From contig CAZJUB010000021.1 in assembly GCA_964549075.1 (NCBI GenBank), forward strand, positions 19,726 through 38,108: 18,383 bases of DNA. Reading direction: 5' to 3'. Under the pieces are notes generated by a model, which worked only from the letters and a program-made list of their open reading frames with translations, was not told the origin of the DNA and made no database searches. Both the position numbers and the translations under genes were made by a program. This DNA is from an uncultured archaeon (GTDB lineage: Archaea > Asgardarchaeota > Heimdallarchaeia > Heimdallarchaeales > Heimdallarchaeaceae). This document shows, piece after piece, positions 4,039-18,383 of this stretch (within the stretch, counting starts at the first letter, position 1; each line of letters starts with the position of its first letter).

Positions 4039-7000
4039 ATGAATATGTTATCAAGAAAAAAACTAATATTTATACTGTTTTCTTTAATTCTGTTAGGCTC
4101 ATTTTTCATTGTACCAACTCAAGCCTTAGAAAATGAAGATCTTATTTATTTAACTGATCTTGTTGAAGATGGTGGAATATTAGAATCCAAAGTGATGCTA
4201 GATAGTTCAGGTAATTTACATTCTTTTCTTAAAGTTAGGAACAGTAATGGTACAAGGCTTATTCATCTATATTATATTGAGGGAGTAGTGAATTTCGATA
4301 TTATTGTAGATTACGCGCAAGGAGTCAATCTACTATATACTTATGTTGAAGGTTCGAAAGTAGGTCTTGTTTACTCAATTAATATTTCTCTAGGAGCAAA
4401 ACAGTTCAGATTATATGAATATCAACCTGGGTATAGTGAAGATATGTTGTTGTTTCAATTGGCAGCAGAACTATATATCTGGTACATAACCTTCTACAAA
4501 TTCATCTATACTGGTGGTTTGATTCATTGTTTTCATAATATCTTTTGGGGAGGAATGAATGAAAATATGAATATCACCCACTATTGGGGTCCTCCGGGAG
4601 GAACAATTTATAGTGAAAGTTATTTTATAGCTGATGATAACGCAAAATCTGTAATCGATTTGGTAGTAGATGACACGTCTCATATCTGGTATATTTATCA
4701 ATTAAGACAAACTGAGTATGGTATCGGGGTAGGGGAGTTAGACAATTCTGGCTATAATTTAGCTCTTGTAACTACACGAACTTTTAGTGACGTTCTTTAC
4801 GATGTTTCTAAATTTATGGCATTAGCGTGCGATCCTTCTGACGGTGTTTTTTGTTTCACATTTGTTAATCCACTCAAGCTCTACTGGGGATATTTTAACG
4901 GAATCTCTCTTACTGAAAATGTTCAAGCAACCTTTTACGATAATCCTATTGATTTCAATTTCAATATAGATGGTTTGTCAACTTCAATTTTAGTATTCAA
5001 CTTAGTAGATGAAAATATTCTGAATCTGTATCATTATATTTTAACAGGCACTACTTGGGGAGTTCAAAGCATCCAATCTCAAGAAAAGATTCTGGAAAAT
5101 CAATATGCATCATATCTCCAAGGAAATAGTTTTGTTGTAATATTTTCTACACTCATAGACACAACTCCTTATGGTCCAGAACGTCCACTAGCATTCAGAG
5201 ATAAGACAGGTTTAGCCCTTTTTGTGATTACTGATACAATAATTGAGACTGAATTATACATTGAATCCTTACAAGTATACAATCCAATAATAGAATTTTT
5301 TGTAACTAGATGGTGGGTTTTAGTAATTATAGTTGGATTGTTAGCAATCATAGGTATAATCCTGTGGATCTCCTTAAGGAGGAGAAAGAAAGAAATTGTT
5401 GCTTTTCTAACTGACACTCAGGTCGGTGAACACAAATCTAAATTTGTTCTTTTCTTTTTAAATATTGGTCGTTTAATTCGAAATGGATTAAGTACTATCT
5501 TTACAATTTGGTTATCCAATAAAAAACGTTCAATATTAACTTTGGCTGGATTCCTTATTACTGGATACCTATTAAGTTCAGCAGTTATCATAGCACAAAG
5601 TGAAGAATCAGCGATGATTAAAGCTTTTAACAGATCTTTTCCACTCATTGCAGATGGAGAGATTTCAGCTAGACTAGAAACATCTTTTATCACCGGTAAT
5701 TTTACGTTAATTCAACCTTCTTATGGAACTGACGCTAGAGAAGAGATACTTGATCTTTATAATGGTATGACAGTTGCTAATTATATAGAAGATTTGGTTT
5801 CCGGTTATAGAACTATACTGCGGGTATACAAACCTTATGGTTCGAATGACTACAGTTTTGTTGGATTACCAAACGATTGTGATGATTTTCTCAGTACTAT
5901 GTTGATTGATGGAAGAATGCCAATAAATGAAACCGAAGTAGTAATTACAGAAGCATTATCACTTTCAGCAAGTGTAGATGTTAATGAAACTTTAACATTA
6001 GGGGCTTGGGCAAACTTCTGGGTAGGAGGAACTGGAGCACCTCCTGGTGTGGATGATTATAAAATAAATTGTACAGTAGTTGGGATTTTCGAAAGAATAA
6101 GCGTTGGTCAAGCTAAAAGAGTATCAGAACAACTAGGACTGCCTTATGATATTTATACAATAGCATCAGAAAATGCAGATATCATAACTAAGCAAAATAA
6201 CTTCTTTGAGATATTATCCCAAGGAGAAAAAATGAATCTCGGTATGTGGGGATATTATCAGCTGTTGATGAATTTTAATTCGTTTAGTATAACAGACAGA
6301 ACTCAATTAGTTGAAGAACAGGAAGATATGCAACAGAGAATATTCACATTTAGTTTCGATCCATCCTCAACAATAAGTACACAAGTCATAGATGAGGTAC
6401 ATGATTTTGAAGAAACAACTGAGTTGAAAATGTTCTTTGAATCATTTAACACATATTACTTAAACAATATGGCAAGACTACTTATCTTTGCAATTCCAGC
6501 AATTTTGTTATCTATATTTATGGTATTTGAATCTTCAGATTTATTTTCTTCCAGTTATGAACAAGAGATGGAGATTCTAAAAAACAGAGGTATTTCGACA
6601 GGAAGACTATTCTCAACATATTTAATTATTAGATTAGCGGAAATTATTGTTGCAAGTCTAGCTAGTTTAGGAATAGCAGTGGGAACGGCAGTCCCACTAA
6701 TAAAAATTGACGGTTTTATTTCCTTTACTAATACTGATACTCACCTGGTAATAGGTAGTATTCCGATGATTTTAGGTTTAACAGCAGCAGTGTTGTTTAT
6801 CGTTTCTGTTCCTCGAATCTTCATTCTAGTAAGAAGAAAGAGAGAAATCGAGAAAGCACCTAGAATCTCTAGAAGAAAAATCAAGAAAGAACCAGAACCT
6901 ACCTTTGACATTCCTAAAGAAGAAATAAAGATAGGTGAAGGAAAAACTGCGGGTGAAAGTTTAGCAGCTGGTTATTCAGAAAAAGAAACAGAGACAACAT

Positions 7001-8442
7001 TTGCTTCCATATTTACTTTCTTGGCAAAATCCAAGTTATTATCCTGGAGAGATATTTTCTTCTTAGGTCTTGGAATAGGTTTATTCTACTTCTTCTATAA
7101 TAAAACATTCATAGCTTTTGATACACAAGCTGTAGATGACTTTACACTATTTTTGTTCTTGACAATAGCCGGTGCAATTTTTACCTTGATAGGAGGATTG
7201 CCTTTTGCAGTAAAACTGTTAGGACTTATTCAGAAATCCATAAGTGCATTAATATGGAGATATAAGAAATCTCGATTTACCTTTTCACTTGCAGAGATTG
7301 GAAAAGATATTAGACACTTTGAAAATATTACCTTAATTTTCTTACTTGTAGTTCTTATAATTGTTCCTGTTTTAATTGTTCCATACTCAAAAGAAACAAC
7401 TCTAACGGAGCAAGCTTATTTCATGAATGGAACTGATATCAGAATAATGAATTGGGATGATGTTAAATATATTGCAGTAGAAGATTTAGAACAAATTCCA
7501 CAAATAAGAAGCTTTACACGCATAAAAGAATACACATTATATACTGGAGATTTTGATCAAGCTCGTTTACTTGTTATAAATGTGACGGATTTCATTAAAA
7601 CGATGACAGTTCCGTCTGAAAGTGTCACAACACTAGATTGGAACCTAATTGCATTGCTCAATATATCTAATATGTTAATTTCAAATCCTATGAAAACTTT
7701 CTGGAGCAAACCAATTGGAGGAACATTTACTTTCTCAGAACTTGGTTTTTCAGATGTTTTTATGACAATTTTAGGTAATTTCAACCTATTTCCAGTCTAT
7801 TTTTCAAATTGGGATTTAGCAAATGATGAACATATGATGATTATGTCAACAGAAGCTTTCAATACTGTCGATCCTTTAATTTCTAGAAAATTAAAATTCA
7901 AAGATGAAATCTTCATAAGAACATACGATGAAAAAGATGTTTCAATAGTCTTGGATAAAATGTATGATATTGAACAAGGGTTAACAATAGATACCGTTGC
8001 AGAGGTTAAAGCTAATCTTAAAACACCACTGTATAATATCTTTATAATCGAAATGTTACTGTCTCTCTTTGTAGCAACAGGAGTTCTAGTGTTCTCAACA
8101 TTTACAACAGCAATAAAAATACTGGAGAAGAGAGTAATAAAGCATGATATAATGAAGAAAATGGGTATAAATACGTCGCGAATAGTAACAATGTCTACGG
8201 TGCAGACAATGTTAGCTGCAATAGGCCCTGCTTTATTAATAGGTGCTATAGTAGGATTCAACATAATAGAACCCATTCTGAAACAACTAAATTATGGAGC
8301 AGCACCATACCAATTTTACATAAACTACCCATATATTATGATAGCAGTGCTATTCGTAGGAATACCGTTGTTAATCTATATAAGTTTGAACTACTTCCTG
8401 AAACGGGAATTTAGTAGATATGCACCAACAATGATGGAGTAA
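4039..8442 (+). CDS. Type VII ABC transporter permease (two fused MacB/FtsX-like units) with an extra N-terminal extracellular beta-rich domain
   Basis: Signal peptide, about 390-aa beta-rich domain, TM at about aa 425-446. Unit 1 has GRMPINETEVVI and EQEMEILKNRGIS; unit 2 has GTDIRI and HDIMKKMGIN, followed by three TMs. Adjacent to a LolD-type ATPase. Confidence 0.88.
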   Translation: MNMLSRKKLIFILFSLILLGSFFIVPTQALENEDLIYLTDLVEDGGILESKVMLDSSGNLHSFLKVRNSNGTRLIHLYYIEGVVNFDIIVDYAQGVNLLYTYVEGSKVGLVYSINISLGAKQFRLYEYQPGYSEDMLLFQLAAELYIWYITFYKFIYTGGLIHCFHNIFWGGMNENMNITHYWGPPGGTIYSESYFIADDNAKSVIDLVVDDTSHIWYIYQLRQTEYGIGVGELDNSGYNLALVTTRTFSDVLYDVSKFMALACDPSDGVFCFTFVNPLKLYWGYFNGISLTENVQATFYDNPIDFNFNIDGLSTSILVFNLVDENILNLYHYILTGTTWGVQSIQSQEKILENQYASYLQGNSFVVIFSTLIDTTPYGPERPLAFRDKTGLALFVITDTIIETELYIESLQVYNPIIEFFVTRWWVLVIIVGLLAIIGIILWISLRRRKKEIVAFLTDTQVGEHKSKFVLFFLNIGRLIRNGLSTIFTIWLSNKKRSILTLAGFLITGYLLSSAVIIAQSEESAMIKAFNRSFPLIADGEISARLETSFITGNFTLIQPSYGTDAREEILDLYNGMTVANYIEDLVSGYRTILRVYKPYGSNDYSFVGLPNDCDDFLSTMLIDGRMPINETEVVITEALSLSASVDVNETLTLGAWANFWVGGTGAPPGVDDYKINCTVVGIFERISVGQAKRVSEQLGLPYDIYTIASENADIITKQNNFFEILSQGEKMNLGMWGYYQLLMNFNSFSITDRTQLVEEQEDMQQRIFTFSFDPSSTISTQVIDEVHDFEETTELKMFFESFNTYYLNNMARLLIFAIPAILLSIFMVFESSDLFSSSYEQEMEILKNRGISTGRLFSTYLIIRLAEIIVASLASLGIAVGTAVPLIKIDGFISFTNTDTHLVIGSIPMILGLTAAVLFIVSVPRIFILVRRKREIEKAPRISRRKIKKEPEPTFDIPKEEIKIGEGKTAGESLAAGYSEKETETTFASIFTFLAKSKLLSWRDIFFLGLGIGLFYFFYNKTFIAFDTQAVDDFTLFLFLTIAGAIFTLIGGLPFAVKLLGLIQKSISALIWRYKKSRFTFSLAEIGKDIRHFENITLIFLLVVLIIVPVLIVPYSKETTLTEQAYFMNGTDIRIMNWDDVKYIAVEDLEQIPQIRSFTRIKEYTLYTGDFDQARLLVINVTDFIKTMTVPSESVTTLDWNLIALLNISNMLISNPMKTFWSKPIGGTFTFSELGFSDVFMTILGNFNLFPVYFSNWDLANDEHMMIMSTEAFNTVDPLISRKLKFKDEIFIRTYDEKDVSIVLDKMYDIEQGLTIDTVAEVKANLKTPLYNIFIIEMLLSLFVATGVLVFSTFTTAIKILEKRVIKHDIMKKMGINTSRIVTMSTVQTMLAAIGPALLIGAIVGFNIIEPILKQLNYGAAPYQFYINYPYIMIAVLFVGIPLLIYISLNYFLKREFSRYAPTMME

Positions 8443-8450
8443 GGAAAGAT

Positions 8451-10229
8451 ATGATTATTACAAAAGACCTCATAAAAGTGTTCTATGATCAGATCACCGA
8501 AGTAAAGGTTTCTGCTCTCAGAGGGCTTGATATGTACATCAGAGATGGAGATGTAGCTAGCATAATAGGTCCTTCTGGGGCTGGAAAAAGTACACTCATC
8601 AAGATACTTTGTGGTTTAGAGAAACCAAGTGGAGGAACTGTTCTCATAGATAATGTTAACATTGCTGAATTATCAGAGAAACAGATGAGACAGTTTCGAT
8701 ACCATCGCATGGGTATTGTTAACCAGTTTGTCGGACAGAATCTTCTTTCCTCCTTAACTCTTGAACAAAATATATTGTTACCTATGAAAATGATGTTCAC
8801 AGCAAGAGAAAGAGCAAAAAAAGAGCTTGAAGAACTGTTAAAAATTCTGCATCTTGAGAAGGTTAGAAAGAACCCTATAACAAAGGTTTCAGGTGGAGAA
8901 GCTATGAGAGCGAGTATTGGTGTAGCTTTAGCAAAGAAACCAAGACTTCTCTTGGCGGACGAACCCACAGGTCAACTTGACACAGCTAATACTAATGACA
9001 TAATTGACACTTTCAGAGATTTGAATGAGAATTATGGTACAACTATTTTAGTAGTAACACATGATTTGAGATTCAGAAATGCTTTCAGGAAGAGTTATAT
9101 CATCAGAGATGGAAGATTAGTAGGTGTAAACACTGATCTTGATAGAGGGGAATTGGAATTTATATTAAGACCTCAAGAATCAAATCTACAATCAATGATT
9201 GACAGTTCTCAATTTATCCGTCTTCCTGATGAAGTTTATGTAGCAGGAAATTACAAACATATAGTGGAATTTGATATACATCCTTCAAAGAAATTCTCCT
9301 TTTTATTCAATCCTAATGAGACTAATACAAAAGAAATCTACGAAATTCTTAAACAAATGGAAGACTATAAGCCAGTAGCTGAAGAAGAAGGTGAAGCTAC
9401 AGAATTAACAGCAACAAGGATTGGAAGCCAAGTATCTTTTAGTGAGATAAAACCGATTCTAGAGCATCAATTTCACTTTCCAAAGGATTCAGAACCTCTA
9501 ATCAAAGTAGAAAATCTTCATAAGTCCTTCCCTGCTGGACGAACAGTTAATGAAGTTATCAAAGGAGTTTCATTTACAGTAAATAAAGGTGATTTTGTAG
9601 TTATTTCTGGTAAAAGTGGAGCTGGTAAGACAACTTTGATGAATGTTATATCCGGTGTAGAAGATCCAGATGAAGGTTCTATAGAAATCAAGGATTTTGA
9701 TGTGGTTCATGGAAATCCAAGAGAGATAGCAGATTTCCGATTTTATGAAATAGCTATGATTAATCAAGTTAACAATTTATTCAGCCAATATTCTGTGCAT
9801 GAAAACATGATTATCCCTAGAGTGTTCAACGATACAGAAGAACTAGTACTTTCTGATCTTCCATCAATTGCTGAAAGTGTCGAGATTGATCATAAAGTAG
9901 AACAATATGCTGCAGAATTATCAGCAGGAGAAAGACAAAGAGCAGCATTAGCAGTTGCTTTAGCAAGAAAATCTCCAATAATTTTTGCTGATGAACCAAG
10001 TGCAAATCTCGATTCTAGATTAGCGAGAAACATTATCTCACTTATGATGGATACAGCTGAAAAACTTGGAACTACAATCATAATGAGTACTCATGACTTA
10101 TCTCTTGTTCGACCAGGATTTAGATTGATTAAATTACTTGATGGACAAATTATAGACGATTTCAGAGTCACTCCTGATAAATTGAAAGGAATTATTGAAG
10201 ATTATCTAGGTGTAGAAATCAAGGAATAA
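8451..10229 (+). CDS. ABC ATP-binding protein with two tandem LolD/MacB-type nucleotide-binding domains
   Basis: NBD1: GPSGAGKS, VSGGE, LLLADEPTGQLD, VTHD. NBD2: GKSGAGKT, LSAGE, IIFADEPSANLD, STHD. Starts 8 nt after the permease stop. Confidence 0.95.
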   Translation: MIITKDLIKVFYDQITEVKVSALRGLDMYIRDGDVASIIGPSGAGKSTLIKILCGLEKPSGGTVLIDNVNIAELSEKQMRQFRYHRMGIVNQFVGQNLLSSLTLEQNILLPMKMMFTARERAKKELEELLKILHLEKVRKNPITKVSGGEAMRASIGVALAKKPRLLLADEPTGQLDTANTNDIIDTFRDLNENYGTTILVVTHDLRFRNAFRKSYIIRDGRLVGVNTDLDRGELEFILRPQESNLQSMIDSSQFIRLPDEVYVAGNYKHIVEFDIHPSKKFSFLFNPNETNTKEIYEILKQMEDYKPVAEEEGEATELTATRIGSQVSFSEIKPILEHQFHFPKDSEPLIKVENLHKSFPAGRTVNEVIKGVSFTVNKGDFVVISGKSGAGKTTLMNVISGVEDPDEGSIEIKDFDVVHGNPREIADFRFYEIAMINQVNNLFSQYSVHENMIIPRVFNDTEELVLSDLPSIAESVEIDHKVEQYAAELSAGERQRAALAVALARKSPIIFADEPSANLDSRLARNIISLMMDTAEKLGTTIIMSTHDLSLVRPGFRLIKLLDGQIIDDFRVTPDKLKGIIEDYLGVEIKE

Positions 10230-11381: not shown

Positions 11382-14300
11382 TTAATCAAAACGACGAAGA
11401 TGATTTAAAATATCATGTGCAATTAGTCGCGCTTTATTAATAAGTTCATCCCCTCTTGATAACTCATTTCGAAGATCTTTGGAAAGACTTAGATCGCTTA
11501 TTGGAACGCTCGAATAAAGAATTAAGCTTTGGTGTAGTTGAACATTTATTTTAATAATATCAACAATTGATTTATGGTGTTTTTGTAACTTTTTAAGAGT
11601 CATCTCTGTAAATTGAATATTGTCTAATTCTACGAGAATATTGAAAAGTCTATTCAATTTGAATTTATATCTTCTCAGCTTACTAGAAAGAGCGTTCAAG
11701 AATTCATAATAATTCATAAATCCTATACTTTCTGCTATCATCTTCTGATCGATGGAATGGAAACCAGAAACTTTTGCGTCAAACCATTCATCACCTATTG
11801 GAAAACCAGATTCAACTGCTTCAGACCATTGTTCTACGGTAGAAAAACCATATTGCTTAGCAGCATGGAAGTGCTTAGCTGCTTTAAAACCAAAATCACT
11901 GGCAAATTTGTGCTCTTTGTAAGTCTTGAAACCTCTTTTACGTGCAGTGAAGTATTTATTTAACATCTTCAAGATGAGAATATAAGAGAGACAAAGAGTA
12001 ACCCAAACTGGTAGGAGATAAACTCCATAAAGCAGGAACCAATTGTCCCATTTCAAAGGATCAGAATTGTGAAGCATCTCTTTATAGTTATTAATATAAT
12101 CACCATCGGGATCTTCAAAAGCATCATTTCTAAGAGGATTTAATCCCATTTTAACCTCATAACCATCAAACATTTTATCTTCATCGCTATCGTTCAGCAT
12201 TGGATTAGTTTGATAGACTTTTACTTCTAAATAATCATTTAAATCATCAAAATCACTGTCAAACTCATGCGGGTTAGTGTTGTACCAAGCTTCTTCGAAA
12301 TTAGTAAGCTTATCATCATCTAAGTCAAGATTACTATCATAAACAAGAGGATCAAGATTATTTTCAACCTCGTAACCATCTAAAAGATAATCTGAGTCGG
12401 TGTCTTCTAGTCTTGGGTGAGTACCGATAACATACTCTTCCAAGTTTACTAAACCATCCCAATCTAAATCAAAATATCCATCTTGGAAGATAGGGTTGGT
12501 ATTGTAAGTCACTTCCCACCAGTCGTCCATCAAGTCGTTATCGCTATCGTGTGACCATGGGTTTGTGTTGTAAGTATACTCTTCAATATTATACAATTTA
12601 TCATAATCCAAATCAAGATAAGCAGTATCAACAAGAGGATTAATGTTCCATTTAACTTCATAGTCGTCTCCCATTCCATCAAAATCGCTGTCCCAGTTGT
12701 TTGCGTCAGTCCCATAAAAATTGACTTCTATTCCATCCGATAGAGTGTCATAATCACTATCAAAATAAAGCGGATTAGTTTGATAGCAATACTCTTCTAG
12801 ATTGGTTAATCCATCAAAATCTGGATCTAGCATTGTATCATTTAGATTAGGATTTAATCCTAAAACAATTTCATAATAATCAGGCATAGAATCACCGTCT
12901 GTATCATTGTTGAAAGGCAATGTTCCATAGACATATTCTTCAAAATTAGTAAGAGAATCGTTATCCCAATCTTCGTGGCTATCATCTACAAAAGGATCTA
13001 AGCCTTGTAGAATCTCCCACCAGTCATAAATTAAGTCTCCATCCGTGTCCACTAGTATAGGAGATGTACCGTAGATTACGATTTCTTCATAATCCGTTAA
13101 TCCATCAAAATCGCTGTCCACCAGTCGCGGATTGGTGGGATAAAGATAGATTTCATCATAGTCAGAAAGCATATCTCCATCAGTATCGTTTGACAATGGA
13201 CATGTTTGATAAGTGTACTCTATCAGATTAGTTAGATTATCTGCATCAGGATCACAATAAGAGTCATTCACTTTAGGGTCTAACATCTCATTTATCTCCC
13301 AGTTATCGGGAAGAGAGTCACTATCTGTGTCGTTTGAGAAGGGATTGATATCATAAAGATATTCATTGTAATTGCAAACATTATCATTATCTGGATCTTC
13401 ATATTTGTTAGAATAATTTGGATCTAGATTGACCGATATCTCCCAGAAATCAGGCATATCATCATGATCTGAATCAAAATAACGTGGATTGGTTTGATAA
13501 GTGAATATCTCGTCAAAGTCACTGATATTATCTTTATCTGTGTCGTTTGATACAGCATTTGTATTATAGACCTTTATTTCAGTGTAATCATCAATTCCAT
13601 CTAGATCTGTGTCATTTGATGATAAATCTGTTCCATAATTGAAAAATTCTAAACCATCAATTATTTGATCATCGTCGGTATCCATTTTTTCGCTATTGCT
13701 CTGTAAAATCAATTCAGTAGTGTCATCGATATAGTCACCATCACTATCCAAAACCCTAGTTCTTGATATACCTCCATTATATGCTAGAATTCTCTGAGCT
13801 CCAGACATTGATAAACCAAATAATTCCCAACAGTAAAGGTAGTCATCCTCACAAATAGCTAGAATCTCAAACCTGTTATTATTATCAAGATCAGCTATCA
13901 TTAGAGGAGTTCTAGCAGATATGTGCATATCATAGGAAATAAGCACATTTCCCAAACAATCTAGTACTATGATATTATTACTTCTCGAACTAACAATTAT
14001 TTCTAAAAATCCATCACTGTTAAAGTCAATAACAGAAGGGGTACCAAGTAGTGTTTCTTGAACATTTGTCTCCCACCAGAGAGTTCCAGTGTTACTATAA
14101 CAATAGACCTCCCCTGTGTCTGAACACATGATTATATCCATGTAACCATTTGAATCTATATCTACAATGAGAGGATTATCGTAATTTCCATAACCAATTG
14201 CACTACTCCACAGAATTATTCCTAAATTATTTACACAATGAAGATGAGCATCAGTAGCAACAATCATTTCTAAATTATTTTCATCAGAATCAAAATTAGC

Positions 14301-15032
14301 AATACCTAAACAACCAGTTAAATAGTTACTAAATTCTGTTTCCCAGATGATATTCCCTTCTCCATTTATACAATATAGATTCTTACCGTGGGTGACAATT
14401 ATTTCATATTTCCCATCACCATTGATATCTGAAACCGCTGGTTCTCCAGTTTTTCCAGCTACAGGGAATTCAAGCTGCCATAGTAAATTTCCTTCATACG
14501 ATACACAGAACAAACCATCCCAGTCTGTACTACAAATTATCTCAAAATTCGAATCTCCATTAACATCAGCGATACAAGGAGTCTTAAATAACGAACTATC
14601 TCCTTCTCTAATGTAAGACCAGATAGTGTCACCAAAACGGTTGCTACAATAAATCTTTCCCGCCATCCCTGTAACAATATCAAGGTTATTGTCATTATCT
14701 ATATCAGCAAAAGCACAGGTTGTTTGAGCAACTGTGGCAAGATAAGATTTGTACCAAATAAGGTCACCATCTTGACTGATAAGATATCCAGATAAGGCAA
14801 TTTCCTGATGACCGTCGAAGTTAATATCAATAATTGAAGGAGTCTCAGAACACCATGCTAAAGGATAAGTCCATTCAAGTCGAAAAATAACTTCAGAAAG
14901 ATCTAAATTGAAATTATAATCATTATTTGCTTCAGATGTTTTAGAATCAGCTTGTTGAATAAGACTGAAGCTGCCTAAGATAAGAATAAACAAACCTATT
15001 ACAATCAGTGTTGTTTTACTGTTATTGCCCAT
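11382..15032 (-). CDS. Large single-pass surface protein: FG-GAP/PQQ-like beta-propeller, thrombospondin-type-3-like Ca-binding repeats, TM helix, cytoplasmic repeat and helical domains
   Basis: Signal sequence; eight D-h-[DN]-x-[DN]...[ED]-h loops interleaved with Gxx[IL]W motifs; about 24 DxDxD motifs; TM WFLLYGVYLLPVWVTLCLSYILIL; about 190-aa cytoplasmic tail. Confidence 0.88.
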   Translation of the reverse strand: MGNNSKTTLIVIGLFILILGSFSLIQQADSKTSEANNDYNFNLDLSEVIFRLEWTYPLAWCSETPSIIDINFDGHQEIALSGYLISQDGDLIWYKSYLATVAQTTCAFADIDNDNNLDIVTGMAGKIYCSNRFGDTIWSYIREGDSSLFKTPCIADVNGDSNFEIICSTDWDGLFCVSYEGNLLWQLEFPVAGKTGEPAVSDINGDGKYEIIVTHGKNLYCINGEGNIIWETEFSNYLTGCLGIANFDSDENNLEMIVATDAHLHCVNNLGIILWSSAIGYGNYDNPLIVDIDSNGYMDIIMCSDTGEVYCYSNTGTLWWETNVQETLLGTPSVIDFNSDGFLEIIVSSRSNNIIVLDCLGNVLISYDMHISARTPLMIADLDNNNRFEILAICEDDYLYCWELFGLSMSGAQRILAYNGGISRTRVLDSDGDYIDDTTELILQSNSEKMDTDDDQIIDGLEFFNYGTDLSSNDTDLDGIDDYTEIKVYNTNAVSNDTDKDNISDFDEIFTYQTNPRYFDSDHDDMPDFWEISVNLDPNYSNKYEDPDNDNVCNYNEYLYDINPFSNDTDSDSLPDNWEINEMLDPKVNDSYCDPDADNLTNLIEYTYQTCPLSNDTDGDMLSDYDEIYLYPTNPRLVDSDFDGLTDYEEIVIYGTSPILVDTDGDLIYDWWEILQGLDPFVDDSHEDWDNDSLTNFEEYVYGTLPFNNDTDGDSMPDYYEIVLGLNPNLNDTMLDPDFDGLTNLEEYCYQTNPLYFDSDYDTLSDGIEVNFYGTDANNWDSDFDGMGDDYEVKWNINPLVDTAYLDLDYDKLYNIEEYTYNTNPWSHDSDNDLMDDWWEVTYNTNPIFQDGYFDLDWDGLVNLEEYVIGTHPRLEDTDSDYLLDGYEVENNLDPLVYDSNLDLDDDKLTNFEEAWYNTNPHEFDSDFDDLNDYLEVKVYQTNPMLNDSDEDKMFDGYEVKMGLNPLRNDAFEDPDGDYINNYKEMLHNSDPLKWDNWFLLYGVYLLPVWVTLCLSYILILKMLNKYFTARKRGFKTYKEHKFASDFGFKAAKHFHAAKQYGFSTVEQWSEAVESGFPIGDEWFDAKVSGFHSIDQKMIAESIGFMNYYEFLNALSSKLRRYKFKLNRLFNILVELDNIQFTEMTLKKLQKHHKSIVDIIKINVQLHQSLILYSSVPISDLSLSKDLRNELSRGDELINKARLIAHDILNHLRRFD
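11682..11933 (-). repeat. Six tandem 14-aa (42-nt) protein repeats GFxxxx[EQH]xxxAxxx in the cytoplasmic tail
   Basis: GFKTYKEHKFASDF / GFKAAKHFHAAKQY / GFSTVEQWSEAVES / GFPIGDEWFDAKVS / GFHSIDQKMIAESI / GFMNYYEFLNALSS. Confidence 0.85.
12050..13748 (-). repeat. Protein-level DxDxD(G) calcium-binding (TSP3-like) repeat tract, about 24 units
   Basis: Recurrent DTDxDxLxDxxExxxYxTNP and DxDxDxMxDxWExxxxLDP...DxDxDxLTNxEEY units, diverged at DNA level. Confidence 0.9.
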
Positions 15033-15542
15033 TCTAGACCCATCTGCTATTTTGAAGAATGAGAATACGAGTCAATTTTTTATAACCACTTAACCTCCAT
15101 TTGTGTGCTGTGTCTTGTTCTCTTGTAAAGTTATTACTCTCTTCTTTATCCTAATAATATTCGTTTAAGCATTTATATAATTTCGTCCTCTAATTCAATA
15201 ATTCGAATGTTTGGGGAGGGGAAGATATATAAGTGTTTTAGCACTTTGAACTCCATTTTAATAATTAGAAGTTTAGTGAATTTAATAATTGAAACACTTT
15301 CAACTAGTAAAAATTTTAACATAGAGCTAGTAGTTATCTTAACAACAAGTTCACAGGGAGGTTTGATTCTTAGTTGACTTCTCATTTTTCTAATAAATGT
15401 ATTATAATTAAACAATTATATTATTTAGTCTGATACAGAAACAAGACATTAGCTTGACAAATAAGAAACCTATTTTCAACTAAAACAAAACCTTATAGAG
15501 AGTTGTAGAAGAAGTTTGAAACAACCAGTTTCTTCGAATGTG

Positions 15543-17249
15543 TTATTCATTAGTATCAGATCCTTCAATCTTTTCTTTTAATTCTTTTAATTCTGAATTC
15601 TTTGAAGTAATATCTGCTTTGATTTTATTAATCTGATTCTCAAGTTCTGCAATTTCCTTAGTTATTTTACCTACTTTTCTGATTTCTTCTTCTTTATCTG
15701 TATCTTTGATGAGTGCTTTTTGTATATCCAATTCTGCTTCAAGCTCCTTGTATAATACATCAAGCTGCTGATCTTTAAGTTCTAGCTCTTTTTGAGCTCT
15801 CTCTAAAGATTTTTTCTCTTCTTTCATTTTGTTTGACAAATCCACAAGATTTTCTTTATCCTTCTCCATACTCTTAGTATCAGACTCTATACAATCTAAA
15901 CAGTTATCAATATCTGCTTTGAGTTTTTCAATCTCTTTCTCGATTTTTTTGTTTTTCTTGTCATCTTTCTCTAAAGATAATTCTGTCTCAAACTCAGCAA
16001 TCTTTTGATTGTCTTTATCCATTTGCTCTTGAAGCTTGGTAATCTCTTTCAAATTGTTCTGAATATTATCTTCCAAATCTTCTATTTGTTTATCAATATC
16101 TTTGATTTTATCTTTGAGATCTTTGATTTCCTGATCTTTTTCTACAGATTTTTGTTTGGTCTCTTTAATTTGCTCATTAAGTTCTTTGATTTCTTCTTCA
16201 ATATTTGCAAGTCTATCTATATCTTTCTTAACATCAACTACATCTTGGATAGATTTTTCCTTTTTTTTCTTCTCTTCTAAATCTTTGTAGAGCTCTTTGA
16301 TTCGTTCCTCTTTCCTAATTTTATCAGTATTACACTTATCTAATCTCTGTTTATCTTCTTCTAATTTATCTTTTAGTTGAGATCGTTGTTCTGTTTTACT
16401 TTCAAGATCAGTTTTTTCTGTTTCCAAATCTCTTTGTAATTGTGTAATTTCCTTAGAAATCTCAGCTATTTTATCAGCTTCTCTTTCCTCAGCAGCTTTT
16501 TGTTCAAGATTGGTTTTTCTTTCTTCTCGATCAAGAATTCGTTTTTCCATGTCTTTTACATTAGATCTTTTCAATCTTAATTCTTGATTTAGTAAATCTA
16601 ATCTTCCTTCCTCAGAAGAAATTTTCTCTTCTAAACTTGAAATCTCTTCCTCTTTCATGTCTTTTTCATGTTCTGTAATCTCAATATCACTTGTAATCTC
16701 TTGGATATTTTTCGTGATTTTTTCAAAGTCTTTAAAATCATCAGATGAAGCTCCAAGTTTTATGTGTATCTGTCTTTGTTTCTCTAGTTTTTCCTCTAAA
16801 TGATCATATAGAGATTTTAGTTCTCGTTCCTTTGTTCTAATCTCTCTTTCAACCAGCTCTATCTGTCCGATATCTAGAAGTTTACCAATTTGAGCTATGT
16901 ATCTCCTAACTGAATCAATTTGAAGTTCTCCTTTTTCTAGGGTTTTCCTGAAGAAAAGAGCTAGATTAGCATTTTCACCTATTTTAATGATGAGAATATC
17001 GATATCATCTGTATCAAAAAGAAGTTGATTATATCCTTTGAAACCATAATTTGATAAATCATACAAATCACGTAATGTCGAAAGAACCTTAGAGAAATCT
17101 TCTCCAACTTTTGGGATGTTTACTGATTCTTCAAATTGCTCAAAAGTTGTCTGATAAACTGTCCCATCATTATAGAACATAACAATATGCTCAACTTCTG
17201 GGAGAGCTCTTCTGATTCTTTCCATTGTTTTCATAACCATTTTCTTCAC
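15543..17249 (-). CDS. Roadblock/LC7-like N-terminal domain fused to a long repetitive coiled coil
   Basis: aa 1-127 read as alpha-beta-beta-alpha-beta-beta-beta-alpha (LPEVEHIVMFYNDGTV ... QLLFDTDDIDILIIKIGENANLALFF). aa 130-568 are E/K-rich heptads with no Pro and no Walker motifs. GTG start 1 nt after the upstream stop; Met4 or Met6 are alternative starts. Confidence 0.8.
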   Translation of the reverse strand: MKKMVMKTMERIRRALPEVEHIVMFYNDGTVYQTTFEQFEESVNIPKVGEDFSKVLSTLRDLYDLSNYGFKGYNQLLFDTDDIDILIIKIGENANLALFFRKTLEKGELQIDSVRRYIAQIGKLLDIGQIELVEREIRTKERELKSLYDHLEEKLEKQRQIHIKLGASSDDFKDFEKITKNIQEITSDIEITEHEKDMKEEEISSLEEKISSEEGRLDLLNQELRLKRSNVKDMEKRILDREERKTNLEQKAAEEREADKIAEISKEITQLQRDLETEKTDLESKTEQRSQLKDKLEEDKQRLDKCNTDKIRKEERIKELYKDLEEKKKKEKSIQDVVDVKKDIDRLANIEEEIKELNEQIKETKQKSVEKDQEIKDLKDKIKDIDKQIEDLEDNIQNNLKEITKLQEQMDKDNQKIAEFETELSLEKDDKKNKKIEKEIEKLKADIDNCLDCIESDTKSMEKDKENLVDLSNKMKEEKKSLERAQKELELKDQQLDVLYKELEAELDIQKALIKDTDKEEEIRKVGKITKEIAELENQINKIKADITSKNSELKELKEKIEGSDTNE

Positions 17250-17250
17250 A

Positions 17251-18366
17251 TTAACCTATGACTATTGATCTAAACTTATTGATTGTTTTATTCAAGTATG
17301 ATTTTGTCTGTTCATTACCATACTTTGAAAATATAAAAACTATTCCAACTACTGCAATTATTACTAAACTGATAATTAAACCAATAAGATAAGTATTCTG
17401 AGAGAAGAAAGTAAAGTAGAGAGTAACTAGAATTAACTGCAGTATTGTTGTTGTGAATCCTATCTTCCAGAAAGTTTTGATTTTAACTGGACGATTATTC
17501 TGCTCAGCTATGTTTAAAACCAGAATATTGTCTCCTAGAGGTGTTAGATTGTCTCCCCAGTTCGCTCCAAATGCTAAAGCATAGAAATATTGATTTCCTT
17601 GTGACATAATACCCACAATAGGAATCAAGACCTTGGTAATTGGTATATTGTCTATTAATGAGCTTAGAAATGCAGAAATCCAAATTACTATTATAAGTTG
17701 AAATATTGGATTGCTACTCCCAATATTTTTTAGTGCATTTCCAATGATGTCGATAATACCTACTTCTTCTAATCCTCCAGCAACCACAAAAATACCTAGA
17801 AGATAAAGCAGTAGTTCCATATCAAATTTGTTCATTATATCTTTGGGTTCTACACCATTTAAAGAGCTGAAAATTGTAAGTATCATAGCAATAGCTAGTG
17901 CGATAATATCAGGAGTAATAGTTGGTGAATTTACTGTAACTAGTAAAACAATTAGTAAAATAAGGGATCCTATCGAAGCATAGAGTAATTTTTTATTTTG
18001 TACAAAGTTCCAAGGATTAAACTCTTCTAAAGACGTTACCATTCTTTTTCTTGGTTCTCTCAATTCTTGTCTATAAAGAAAAATGAAGAAACCAATTGTT
18101 ACTCCTGCCATGAGTAGAGAGAATAATCCTACATTCAGAAAGAATTGATTAAAAGATATAGGATTGTCTGTTGTAAGAGATTCTGTAACAATTAGAATAT
18201 TAGGTATGGATGAAATAGAGAAGAAGGTTCCACCTATGTTGACCATTACAGCTTCAGTGATGATATAAGGTGTCGGATCAATATTAAGAATACGCGATAT
18301 TGTAATTGTAATATTTATCAAAATCATAACATTCAGGATGTTGTTAATTAAAGCTGATAAGAAAAC
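17251..18366 (-). CDS. Ion-transporter (IT) superfamily permease, ArsB/NhaD/SLC13 (P-protein-like); N-terminus missing
   Basis: Motifs FLSALINN, NIGG...IPNILI, LLYLLGIFVVAGGLEEVG, SAFLSSLIDNIP and ALAFGANWGDNLTPLG, with multiple TMs. The frame stays open and family-like 13 codons upstream of the listed Met (18327), until TAA at 18367-18369. Confidence 0.88.
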   Translation of the reverse strand, partial: VFLSALINNILNVMILINITITISRILNIDPTPYIITEAVMVNIGGTFFSISSIPNILIVTESLTTDNPISFNQFFLNVGLFSLLMAGVTIGFFIFLYRQELREPRKRMVTSLEEFNPWNFVQNKKLLYASIGSLILLIVLLVTVNSPTITPDIIALAIAMILTIFSSLNGVEPKDIMNKFDMELLLYLLGIFVVAGGLEEVGIIDIIGNALKNIGSSNPIFQLIIVIWISAFLSSLIDNIPITKVLIPIVGIMSQGNQYFYALAFGANWGDNLTPLGDNILVLNIAEQNNRPVKIKTFWKIGFTTTILQLILVTLYFTFFSQNTYLIGLIISLVIIAVVGIVFIFSKYGNEQTKSYLNKTINKFRSIVIG

Positions 18367-18383
18367 TTAAAGTTCTCATAAAA

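Follow-up and report, generated by a model that had tools for sequence, protein, structure and literature searches.

A conserved Asgard archaeal gene pair of an ArsB/NhaD/CitMHS-type permease and a protein with a predicted, divergent Roadblock domain

Genes and proteins of the locus

The window analysed here, an 18,383-nucleotide (nt) stretch from an uncultured archaeon of the Heimdallarchaeaceae (Asgardarchaeota; GenBank assembly GCA_964549075.1, contig CAZJUB010000021.1, positions 19,726 to 38,108), ends in two open frames on the minus strand, one for a permease (17251-18366) and one for a partner protein (15543-17249, 568 codons) in which a head with a predicted Roadblock fold is followed by a long helical rod (Table 1). 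A first-pass annotation had placed the permease stop at 17251-17253, with a GTG 1 nt away as the start of the partner, and these positions were confirmed on the minus strand, the stop being separated by one base from GTG 17249-17247. The GTG is indeed present; however, the partner most likely starts at ATG 17240-17238, 10 nt past the permease stop, since the alignment of most partner relatives, found in a search of 1.84 billion representative proteins, begins at query residue 4, and since nine genus-mates have GGG, a codon unable to start a gene, in place of the GTG. The first conserved codon lies no more than 20 nt from the permease stop in 63 of 72 distinct junctions, and the tightness of the junction is therefore not due to chance; with 1-10 nt in the window itself, the proposed operon-type coupling holds. 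Among the 72 junctions GGTGA, GTGA or GGGA occurs 5-7 nt ahead of the start, frequently overlapping the permease stop, and the GTGA in the spacer of the window may be a ribosome-binding site. A possible oligo-T archaeal terminator, GGTTTTGTTTTAG, would close the two-gene unit. From RNA run X17, two 151-nt contigs fell inside the permease (17543-17693 and 17754-17904) at depth 2, for which DNA carry-over is possible, with no coverage of the junction 17241-17250 or of the partner gene.

Table 1. Features of the permease-partner locus in the window
Feature	Position	Strand	Remarks
Permease gene, 3' part	17251..18383	-	C-terminal ~371 of ~472-490 residues; stop TAA 17253-17251
Spacer from permease stop to conserved ATG	17241..17250	-	10 nt; contains GTG and GTGA
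Predicted Roadblock-fold head of partner	16851..17240	-	Residues 1-130, numbered from ATG 17240
Helical rod of partner and stop codon	15543..16850	-	~435 residues
Possible oligo-T archaeal terminator GGTTTTGTTTTAG	15480..15492	-	50 nt past partner stop; sequence reading alone
Unreliable contig end	18312..18383		~72 bases; T/G conflicts and stops TAA 18369-18367, TGA 18378-18376

The permease is incomplete, the end of the window being the end of the contig; 358-371 residues are present, and the first ~49 residues were found at the start of a separate contig (G000:C147). The first ATG of the permease frame gives 17251-18327, and the frame is open to 18366, a position that merely adjoins the in-frame TAA. 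Where the window has a plus-strand T at 18312, 18314, 18315 and 18332, the contigs from runs X1, X4 and X9 have G, and the X1 contig, which extends past the window end, shows nine differing letters and no gaps against window positions 15000-18383. On the coding strand the four G readings convert N, N and I to T, P and L, residues that vary little or not at all in the family, and because the letters of the other assemblies restore these conserved residues the last ~72 bases are regarded as unreliable. The two in-frame permease stops are probably substitution errors of the contig end as well, which we infer, since the stop letters are absent from the listed differences. A frameshifted permease at the window end was considered and dropped, as both the alignment of relatives and the other assemblies, with substitutions and no gaps, favour substitution errors. 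Near-identical DNA was present in salt-marsh and marine-sediment metagenome runs.

The permease frame matched Pfam CitMHS (PF03600) with an E-value of 2e-29 (103.2 bits against a cut-off of 31.9), the match of the truncated protein being restricted to profile positions 101-320 of 336. It corresponds, at 82% identity, to residues ~104-471 of the 472-residue orthologue of a genus-mate (G001), which matched CitMHS end to end (E 3e-48, 164.9 bits) and scored 43 bits against ArsB, where the cut-off is 22.2. Over the transporter core, then, the permease belongs to the Pfam families CitMHS and ArsB (PF02040). When a family profile of 26 orthologues was compared with the Protein Data Bank (PDB), ArsB (10tp) was the nearest solved relative (E 2.7e-24), followed by VcINDY/NadC at ~1e-8. 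On these matches the permease is classed as a secondary transporter of the ion transporter superfamily, of the ArsB/NhaD/CitMHS type, in agreement with the earlier assignment to an ArsB/NhaD/SLC13 type. Its scores lie far under the curated NCBIfam cut-offs for MamN (106.7 against 500 bits), ArsB (78.7 against 457) and DASS (44.7 against 198.6), and by sequence it is therefore an orthologue of no characterised transporter. While it shares superfamily matches with ArsB, NhaD, CitMHS and DASS proteins (VcINDY, SLC13), it differs from them by a basic C-terminal tail that ends in a conserved KFR..II motif.

The partner proved more difficult to classify. Single-sequence searches of Pfam and the PDB with its first 135 residues gave no useful match, and Pfam Robl_LC7 (PF03259) failed to match the window partner even at E <= 10, leaving it under the gathering threshold; weak Robl_LC7 matches were seen in 9 of 51 relatives (best E 0.0013). 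Among the 1.84 billion proteins 62 relatives of the head were found, mostly of 120-300 amino acids (aa). A profile that included the rods returned coiled-coil PDB proteins only and was rebuilt from rod-less members, whereupon it matched the PDB sequence 9jue_D, a 'Roadblock/LC7 domain protein', at E 0.0078. The AlphaFold2 (AF2) model of the head, from an alignment of 51 sequences, had a predicted local distance difference test score (pLDDT) of 80.5 and a predicted template modelling (TM) score of 0.74, with helices at residues 2-12, 42-62 and 108-130 and strands at 16-23, 28-31, 72-76, 80-86 and 91-98, in the order alpha-beta-beta-alpha-beta-beta-beta-alpha. All top Foldseek matches of this model in the PDB were Roadblock proteins (E 5.7e-8 to 1e-5, TM 0.6-0.77), namely the Asgard Roadblock3 9jue, the MglB structures 6izw, 6h5b, 1j3w and 3t1r, a Roadblock of Thorarchaeota (7f8m), LAMTOR p14/MP1 and LC7 chains of dynein, with 1veu and 5y39 among the PDB entries. 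A language-model atlas look-up on the partner again returned Roadblock/MP1, and nothing further. Given the element order of the model, the Foldseek matches and the profile match to 9jue_D, residues ~1-130 are predicted to form a divergent Roadblock domain, as had been suspected from the N-terminal pattern, and the head falls into the Roadblock/LC7 superfamily at the level of the fold, a sandwich of ~100-130 residues. Its fold is that of MglB and other prokaryotic Roadblock/LC7 proteins and of the Asgard structures 9jue and 9jq8 (Ca. Prometheoarchaeum) and 7f8m; in contrast to these known Roadblocks, with which it is ~10-18% identical, it lies under the Pfam threshold, its gene stands beside a permease rather than a GTPase, and it can carry a rod of up to 435 residues.

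Conservation of the gene pair

From the fetched loci 74 distinct heads were pooled, of which 72 could be tested for adjacency, the remaining two lying at contig ends with missing DNA. In all 72 testable loci the permease stood directly beside the head on the same strand; over the 74 heads it was directly upstream of 68, directly downstream of 4, and not visible for the 2 at contig ends. Within the genus the head was present in 21 of 24 other genomes, with the permease directly upstream on the same strand in each of the 21, one pair being split across two contig ends. The permease was also upstream in 11 of 11 loci checked from other genera of the class, and the 30 best head loci of the phylum comprised 26 with the permease gene upstream, 3 with it downstream and a single one flanked by it on both sides. 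The range of the pair covers the Genome Taxonomy Database (GTDB) families f1 (24/30), f5 (9/22), f15, f17, f18, f19 and f20 (82/135), at least eight families altogether. Adjacency of the two genes in related genomes had been set beforehand as a test by which the pairing could be refuted, and the pairing passed it in every testable locus.

In 24 wide contexts of 10-18 kb, mostly 16 kb, the permease and the head were the sole families common to all, and no third gene was shared throughout. Eight wider contexts from the genus kept the pair intact with different flanking genes. The pair was moreover duplicated in tandem as a unit, giving permease-Roadblock, permease-Roadblock, permease in G044 (L106, G044:C31:10000-26000) and two pairs in G129 (L101, G129:C195). 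The permease and Roadblock genes are thus a genuine module of two genes that has been conserved over much of the Asgard phylum. The relatives, all from metagenome-assembled genomes, carry the source names Heimdallarchaeota, Hodarchaeales and Helarchaeota, and their records are titled Promethearchaeota, Hodarchaeota, Hermodarchaeota and Odinarchaeota.

The two genes also occur together. Within the class, the head profile found 34 of 83 genomes (24/30 in family f1, 9/22 in f5, 0/30 in the other five families, plus G000), and a permease orthologue (E <= 1e-60) was present in exactly the same 34; in the genus g14 both were found in 9 of 22 genomes, the nine being identical. Throughout the phylum the profile matched 125 of 400 genomes at E <= 1e-5 and 112 at E <= 1e-20, the 13 weak matches in between being probably other Roadblock paralogues. 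By a hand count from the profile-search tables, with heads taken at E <= 1e-20, the 400 Asgard genomes divided into 109 with both genes, 3 with the head only, 11 with the permease only and 277 with neither. In the three head-only genomes the gene was a fragment, had an internal stop or lay at a contig start. About five of the 11 permease-only genomes had only paralogues of 33-37% identity and one had a fragment; at six permease-only loci no head-like open reading frame (ORF) was seen beside the permease, the best profile match (E 0.045) being an 83-aa ORF 2.5 kb off.

That the adjacency is inherited synteny without functional meaning would suit a data set drawn from a single phylum in which many genomes are close kin. 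Synteny of this kind is scarcely credible here, however, since the flanks are rearranged while the pair stays, both gene orders exist, the two genes are gained or lost jointly within g14, and the pair has been duplicated in tandem as a unit.

What varies within the module is the rod. In the AF2 model of the full-length partner, helices span residues 108-162, 166-246, 255-423, 427-513 and 517-560, with dips in pLDDT or helix breaks every ~86-90 residues, and the autocorrelation of the rod sequence peaked at offsets of 86 (z 6.6), 179 and 265 besides the heptad peaks at 7 and 14. Neither an ATPase nor another globular domain was found in the rod, and the Pfam search returned no P-loop domain. 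One source names relatives of the partner 'chromosome segregation ATPase', after the SMC/Rad50 type, and this assignment was rejected, as the ABC-type ATPase head halves are lacking and the matches to the SMC/Rad50 model cover coiled-coil stretches only (53.5 bits against a cut-off of 567). The partners of the 74 heads were of 131-143 aa (head only) in 7 cases, 186-229 aa in 38, 260-316 aa in 3 and 529-575 aa in 24, two more being cut by contig ends. Thus the long rod of ~435 residues in ~86-residue units is an addition in family f1. Most other Asgard lineages have a rod of ~90 residues, and some have none.

These lengths bear on a purely structural explanation, in which the long-rod partner would be mainly a cytoskeleton-like spacer or tether and the permease, or its C-terminal tail, would hold the rod at the membrane as an anchor without being regulated. 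The retention of a repeated helical rod of ~435 residues, with a total length of 529-575 aa in 24 of 74 heads, favours such a function, and the ~86-residue units point to selection on rod length or structure. As a general account it is nevertheless very doubtful, since the pairing is kept where the rod is short (38/74) or missing (7/74), so that long-rod anchoring cannot be the common function of the family. Because rod-less heads still adjoin the permease, it is the head that forms the permease-linked unit, and the suggestion that the partner positions the transporter is for the same reason inapplicable to the family as a whole.

The partner as a candidate transporter subunit

Asgard archaea have an expanded set of Roadblock proteins, which count as 'eukaryotic signature' proteins, and to our knowledge almost none of this set has a known partner. 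Roadblock/LC7 domains form homo- or heterodimers through the edge of the beta-sheet and helix 2. We consider it rather likely that the partner described here is soluble and serves the transporter as a cytoplasmic subunit with an accessory or regulatory role. In such a scheme the permease and the partner would be one conserved, co-expressed module, with the head produced in step with the permease through the 1-10 nt junction. By analogy with other Roadblock domains the head would dimerise, and the head, presumably as the dimer, would dock on the cytoplasmic face of the transporter, where it might gate or stabilise transport or report the state of the transporter. Where a rod is present, it may connect transporter units, keep them at a distance from one another or attach them to something else. 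The scheme builds on what is described above for the gene order and the junction, for the predicted fold, and for the conservation, co-occurrence and joint duplication of the pair, from which we would extrapolate to physical binding, head dimerisation, cytoplasmic docking and a regulatory effect, binding alone having model support, of a weak kind.

That support comes from a complex prediction for the G001 permease and head residues 1-140, with a 26-row alignment for each, three runs and three controls. The permease-head score was 0.42 (0.40, 0.51 and 0.42 in the runs) as against 0.00 in all three controls and was graded as weak support; contact agreement in the runs was at least 80% and partner pLDDT at least 64. 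In the calibration of this score, 116 of 157 solved complexes passed the mark, as did 2 of 215 mismatched pairs, and scores of 0.60 or below comprised only 18 of the 157 solved complexes together with both passing mismatches. Given the strong genomic prior, the prediction adds modestly to the argument.

Several observations weigh against a subunit role. The complex score is of the weak grade and came without an interface, so that binding stays a prediction, and no ion-transporter-superfamily transporter with a Roadblock subunit was found in the literature searched. Permeases of 41-50% identity occur without the partner in families f15 (g30), f16 and f21, next to unrelated genes for ferredoxin-like or Usp proteins or for HAD or alpha/beta hydrolases, and the partner is therefore dispensable for the existence of the permease. 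Finally, the genomes share a phylum and cannot count as independent, so that independent events were fewer than the co-occurrence counts suggest.

The same genomic evidence would fit co-regulation as well as it fits binding. The Roadblock protein could thus act on or sense the solute, or a downstream process, with the operon serving co-regulation only, and the weak complex score agrees with a functional link of this sort. Tight, stop-overlapping junctions and duplication as a unit are, however, what one more typically sees for subunits produced at a constant ratio, and the difference between 0.42 and the 0.00 of the three controls, subject to the calibration caveats above, likewise speaks for contact; we regard a link without a complex as quite improbable.

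The first-pass annotation had gone further and suggested a possible link between solute flux and small-GTPase signalling. Here a Roadblock dimer on the permease would recruit or regulate a small GTPase encoded elsewhere, either as GTPase-activating protein (GAP), as guanine nucleotide exchange factor (GEF) or as platform, and solute flux would be read out as GTPase signalling, in functional parallel to Ragulator-Rag-SLC38A9. MglB-type regulators have GAP activity, and their cognate MglA-like small GTPase is usually encoded alongside. The fold of the head, nearest to MglB and Asgard Roadblocks and also matching LAMTOR p14/MP1, suits a platform of this kind. The neighbourhood of the pair departs from that of mglB, as no GTPase family was common to the 24 contexts. 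Arf-like genes stood beside the permease in divergent orientation in two of them (L103:5611-6066 and L104:9853-10395), a Roadblock-Ras (Rag-like) fusion lay 5.7 kb from the pair in G162 (L108:13751-14710), and a Ras-family gene was found several kb from it in one further context; a P-loop motif scan of the neighbours gave few GTPase-like genes. Both Arf-like genes come from two genomes of a single genus, g14, and the head remains under the Robl_LC7 threshold. According to the part of PMC10933270 that was covered, genome layout is rarely helpful for matching Asgard Roadblocks to GTPases, and the small GTPase genes of MK-D1 generally lie outside operons with Roadblock genes; the missing GTPase neighbour is, on that account, weak evidence against a GTPase platform. 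With no GTPase family conserved near the pair, the proposed signalling link went unsupported, and a GTPase platform appears unlikely.

In Ragulator/LAMTOR, Roadblock heterodimers are wrapped by the lipidated p18 anchor and bind Rag heterodimers, and the transporter concerned in eukaryotes is SLC38A9. The Asgard module resembles this arrangement in having a gene for a predicted Roadblock-fold protein beside that for a membrane transporter and in its structural matches to LAMTOR p14/MP1. It differs in that each module has one Roadblock gene, with neither a p18-like anchor nor a second Roadblock or Rag-like gene conserved at the locus. The permease is of the ArsB/CitMHS type and not an SLC38 homologue, as had been recognised at the outset, and the parallel to SLC38A9 is one of function only. 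Streptomyces conservons, which comprise the membrane sensor kinase CvnA, the Roadblock/LC7 protein CvnB, CvnC and the GTPase CvnD, likewise place a Roadblock/LC7 gene in an operon with a membrane protein. Whereas a conservon has four genes, a GTPase gene among them, the Asgard module has two, with a transporter as the membrane protein and without a conserved GTPase neighbour. We know of no separate Roadblock subunit in the ArsB, NhaD, CitMHS or DASS families.

A bolder evolutionary version would see in the module an archaeal precursor of platforms like Ragulator-SLC38A9, where Roadblock signalling is anchored on a transporter. A Roadblock dimer on a solute transporter would then recruit or switch one among the numerous small GTPases of Asgard archaea, depending on transporter state, the permease would act as a 'transceptor', and the long repeated rod of the Heimdall lineages would connect these units with other structures of the cell; we hold this to be clearly unlikely.

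The earlier statement that the pairing is undescribed agrees with the full-text literature searched and with the part of PMC10933270 covered (supplements excluded), where no description of a Roadblock-permease pair was found; the words 'transporter', 'permease' and 'coiled' have no occurrence in that part. The module offers a Roadblock subfamily whose partner is constant and open to testing, a single transporter with its gene 1-20 nt away in ~110 of 400 Asgard genomes, and as a two-protein system it could reveal what an Asgard Roadblock domain does at the membrane. If a subunit role is correct, this would be the first ion-transporter-superfamily transporter with a Roadblock subunit, and should a GTPase join it, the module would be relevant to how Ragulator-like nutrient sensing arose.

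Neighbouring genes and other features of the window

CorA-type Mg2+ channel genes were present in 8 of the 24 contexts (L092, L094, L096-L100 and L109), within ~8 kb on either side of the pair, and in L100 and L109 one immediately preceded the permease in the same orientation; this proximity is no more than a lead to ion homeostasis. MscS-like genes occurred in 3 contexts. A protein family of ~216-222 aa without a Pfam match was found in 1-3 copies around the pair in 7 of the 24 (L093, L094, L096, L097, L107 and others).

The window itself carries further genes of interest. At 4039-10229 on the plus strand lies a gene for a multi-pass membrane protein of 1467 aa without a Pfam match, followed 8 nt on by one for a protein of 592 aa that has two ABC ATPase domains. 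Relatives keep these genes together (L026, L027), and the pair resembles an ABC system whose permease is giant and unannotated. The minus strand at 11382-15032 encodes a 1216-aa FG-GAP/beta-propeller protein with Asp-rich repeats, the C-terminal ~180 residues of which recur, at 34% identity, as a 177-aa ORF directly upstream of the G001 permease (L025:7586-8119). MIF4G is a eukaryote-type domain, and a 224-aa protein encoded at 476-1150 on the minus strand gave a borderline, partial match to it over residues 127-176 (E 7.5e-8, 32.8 bits against 30.8).

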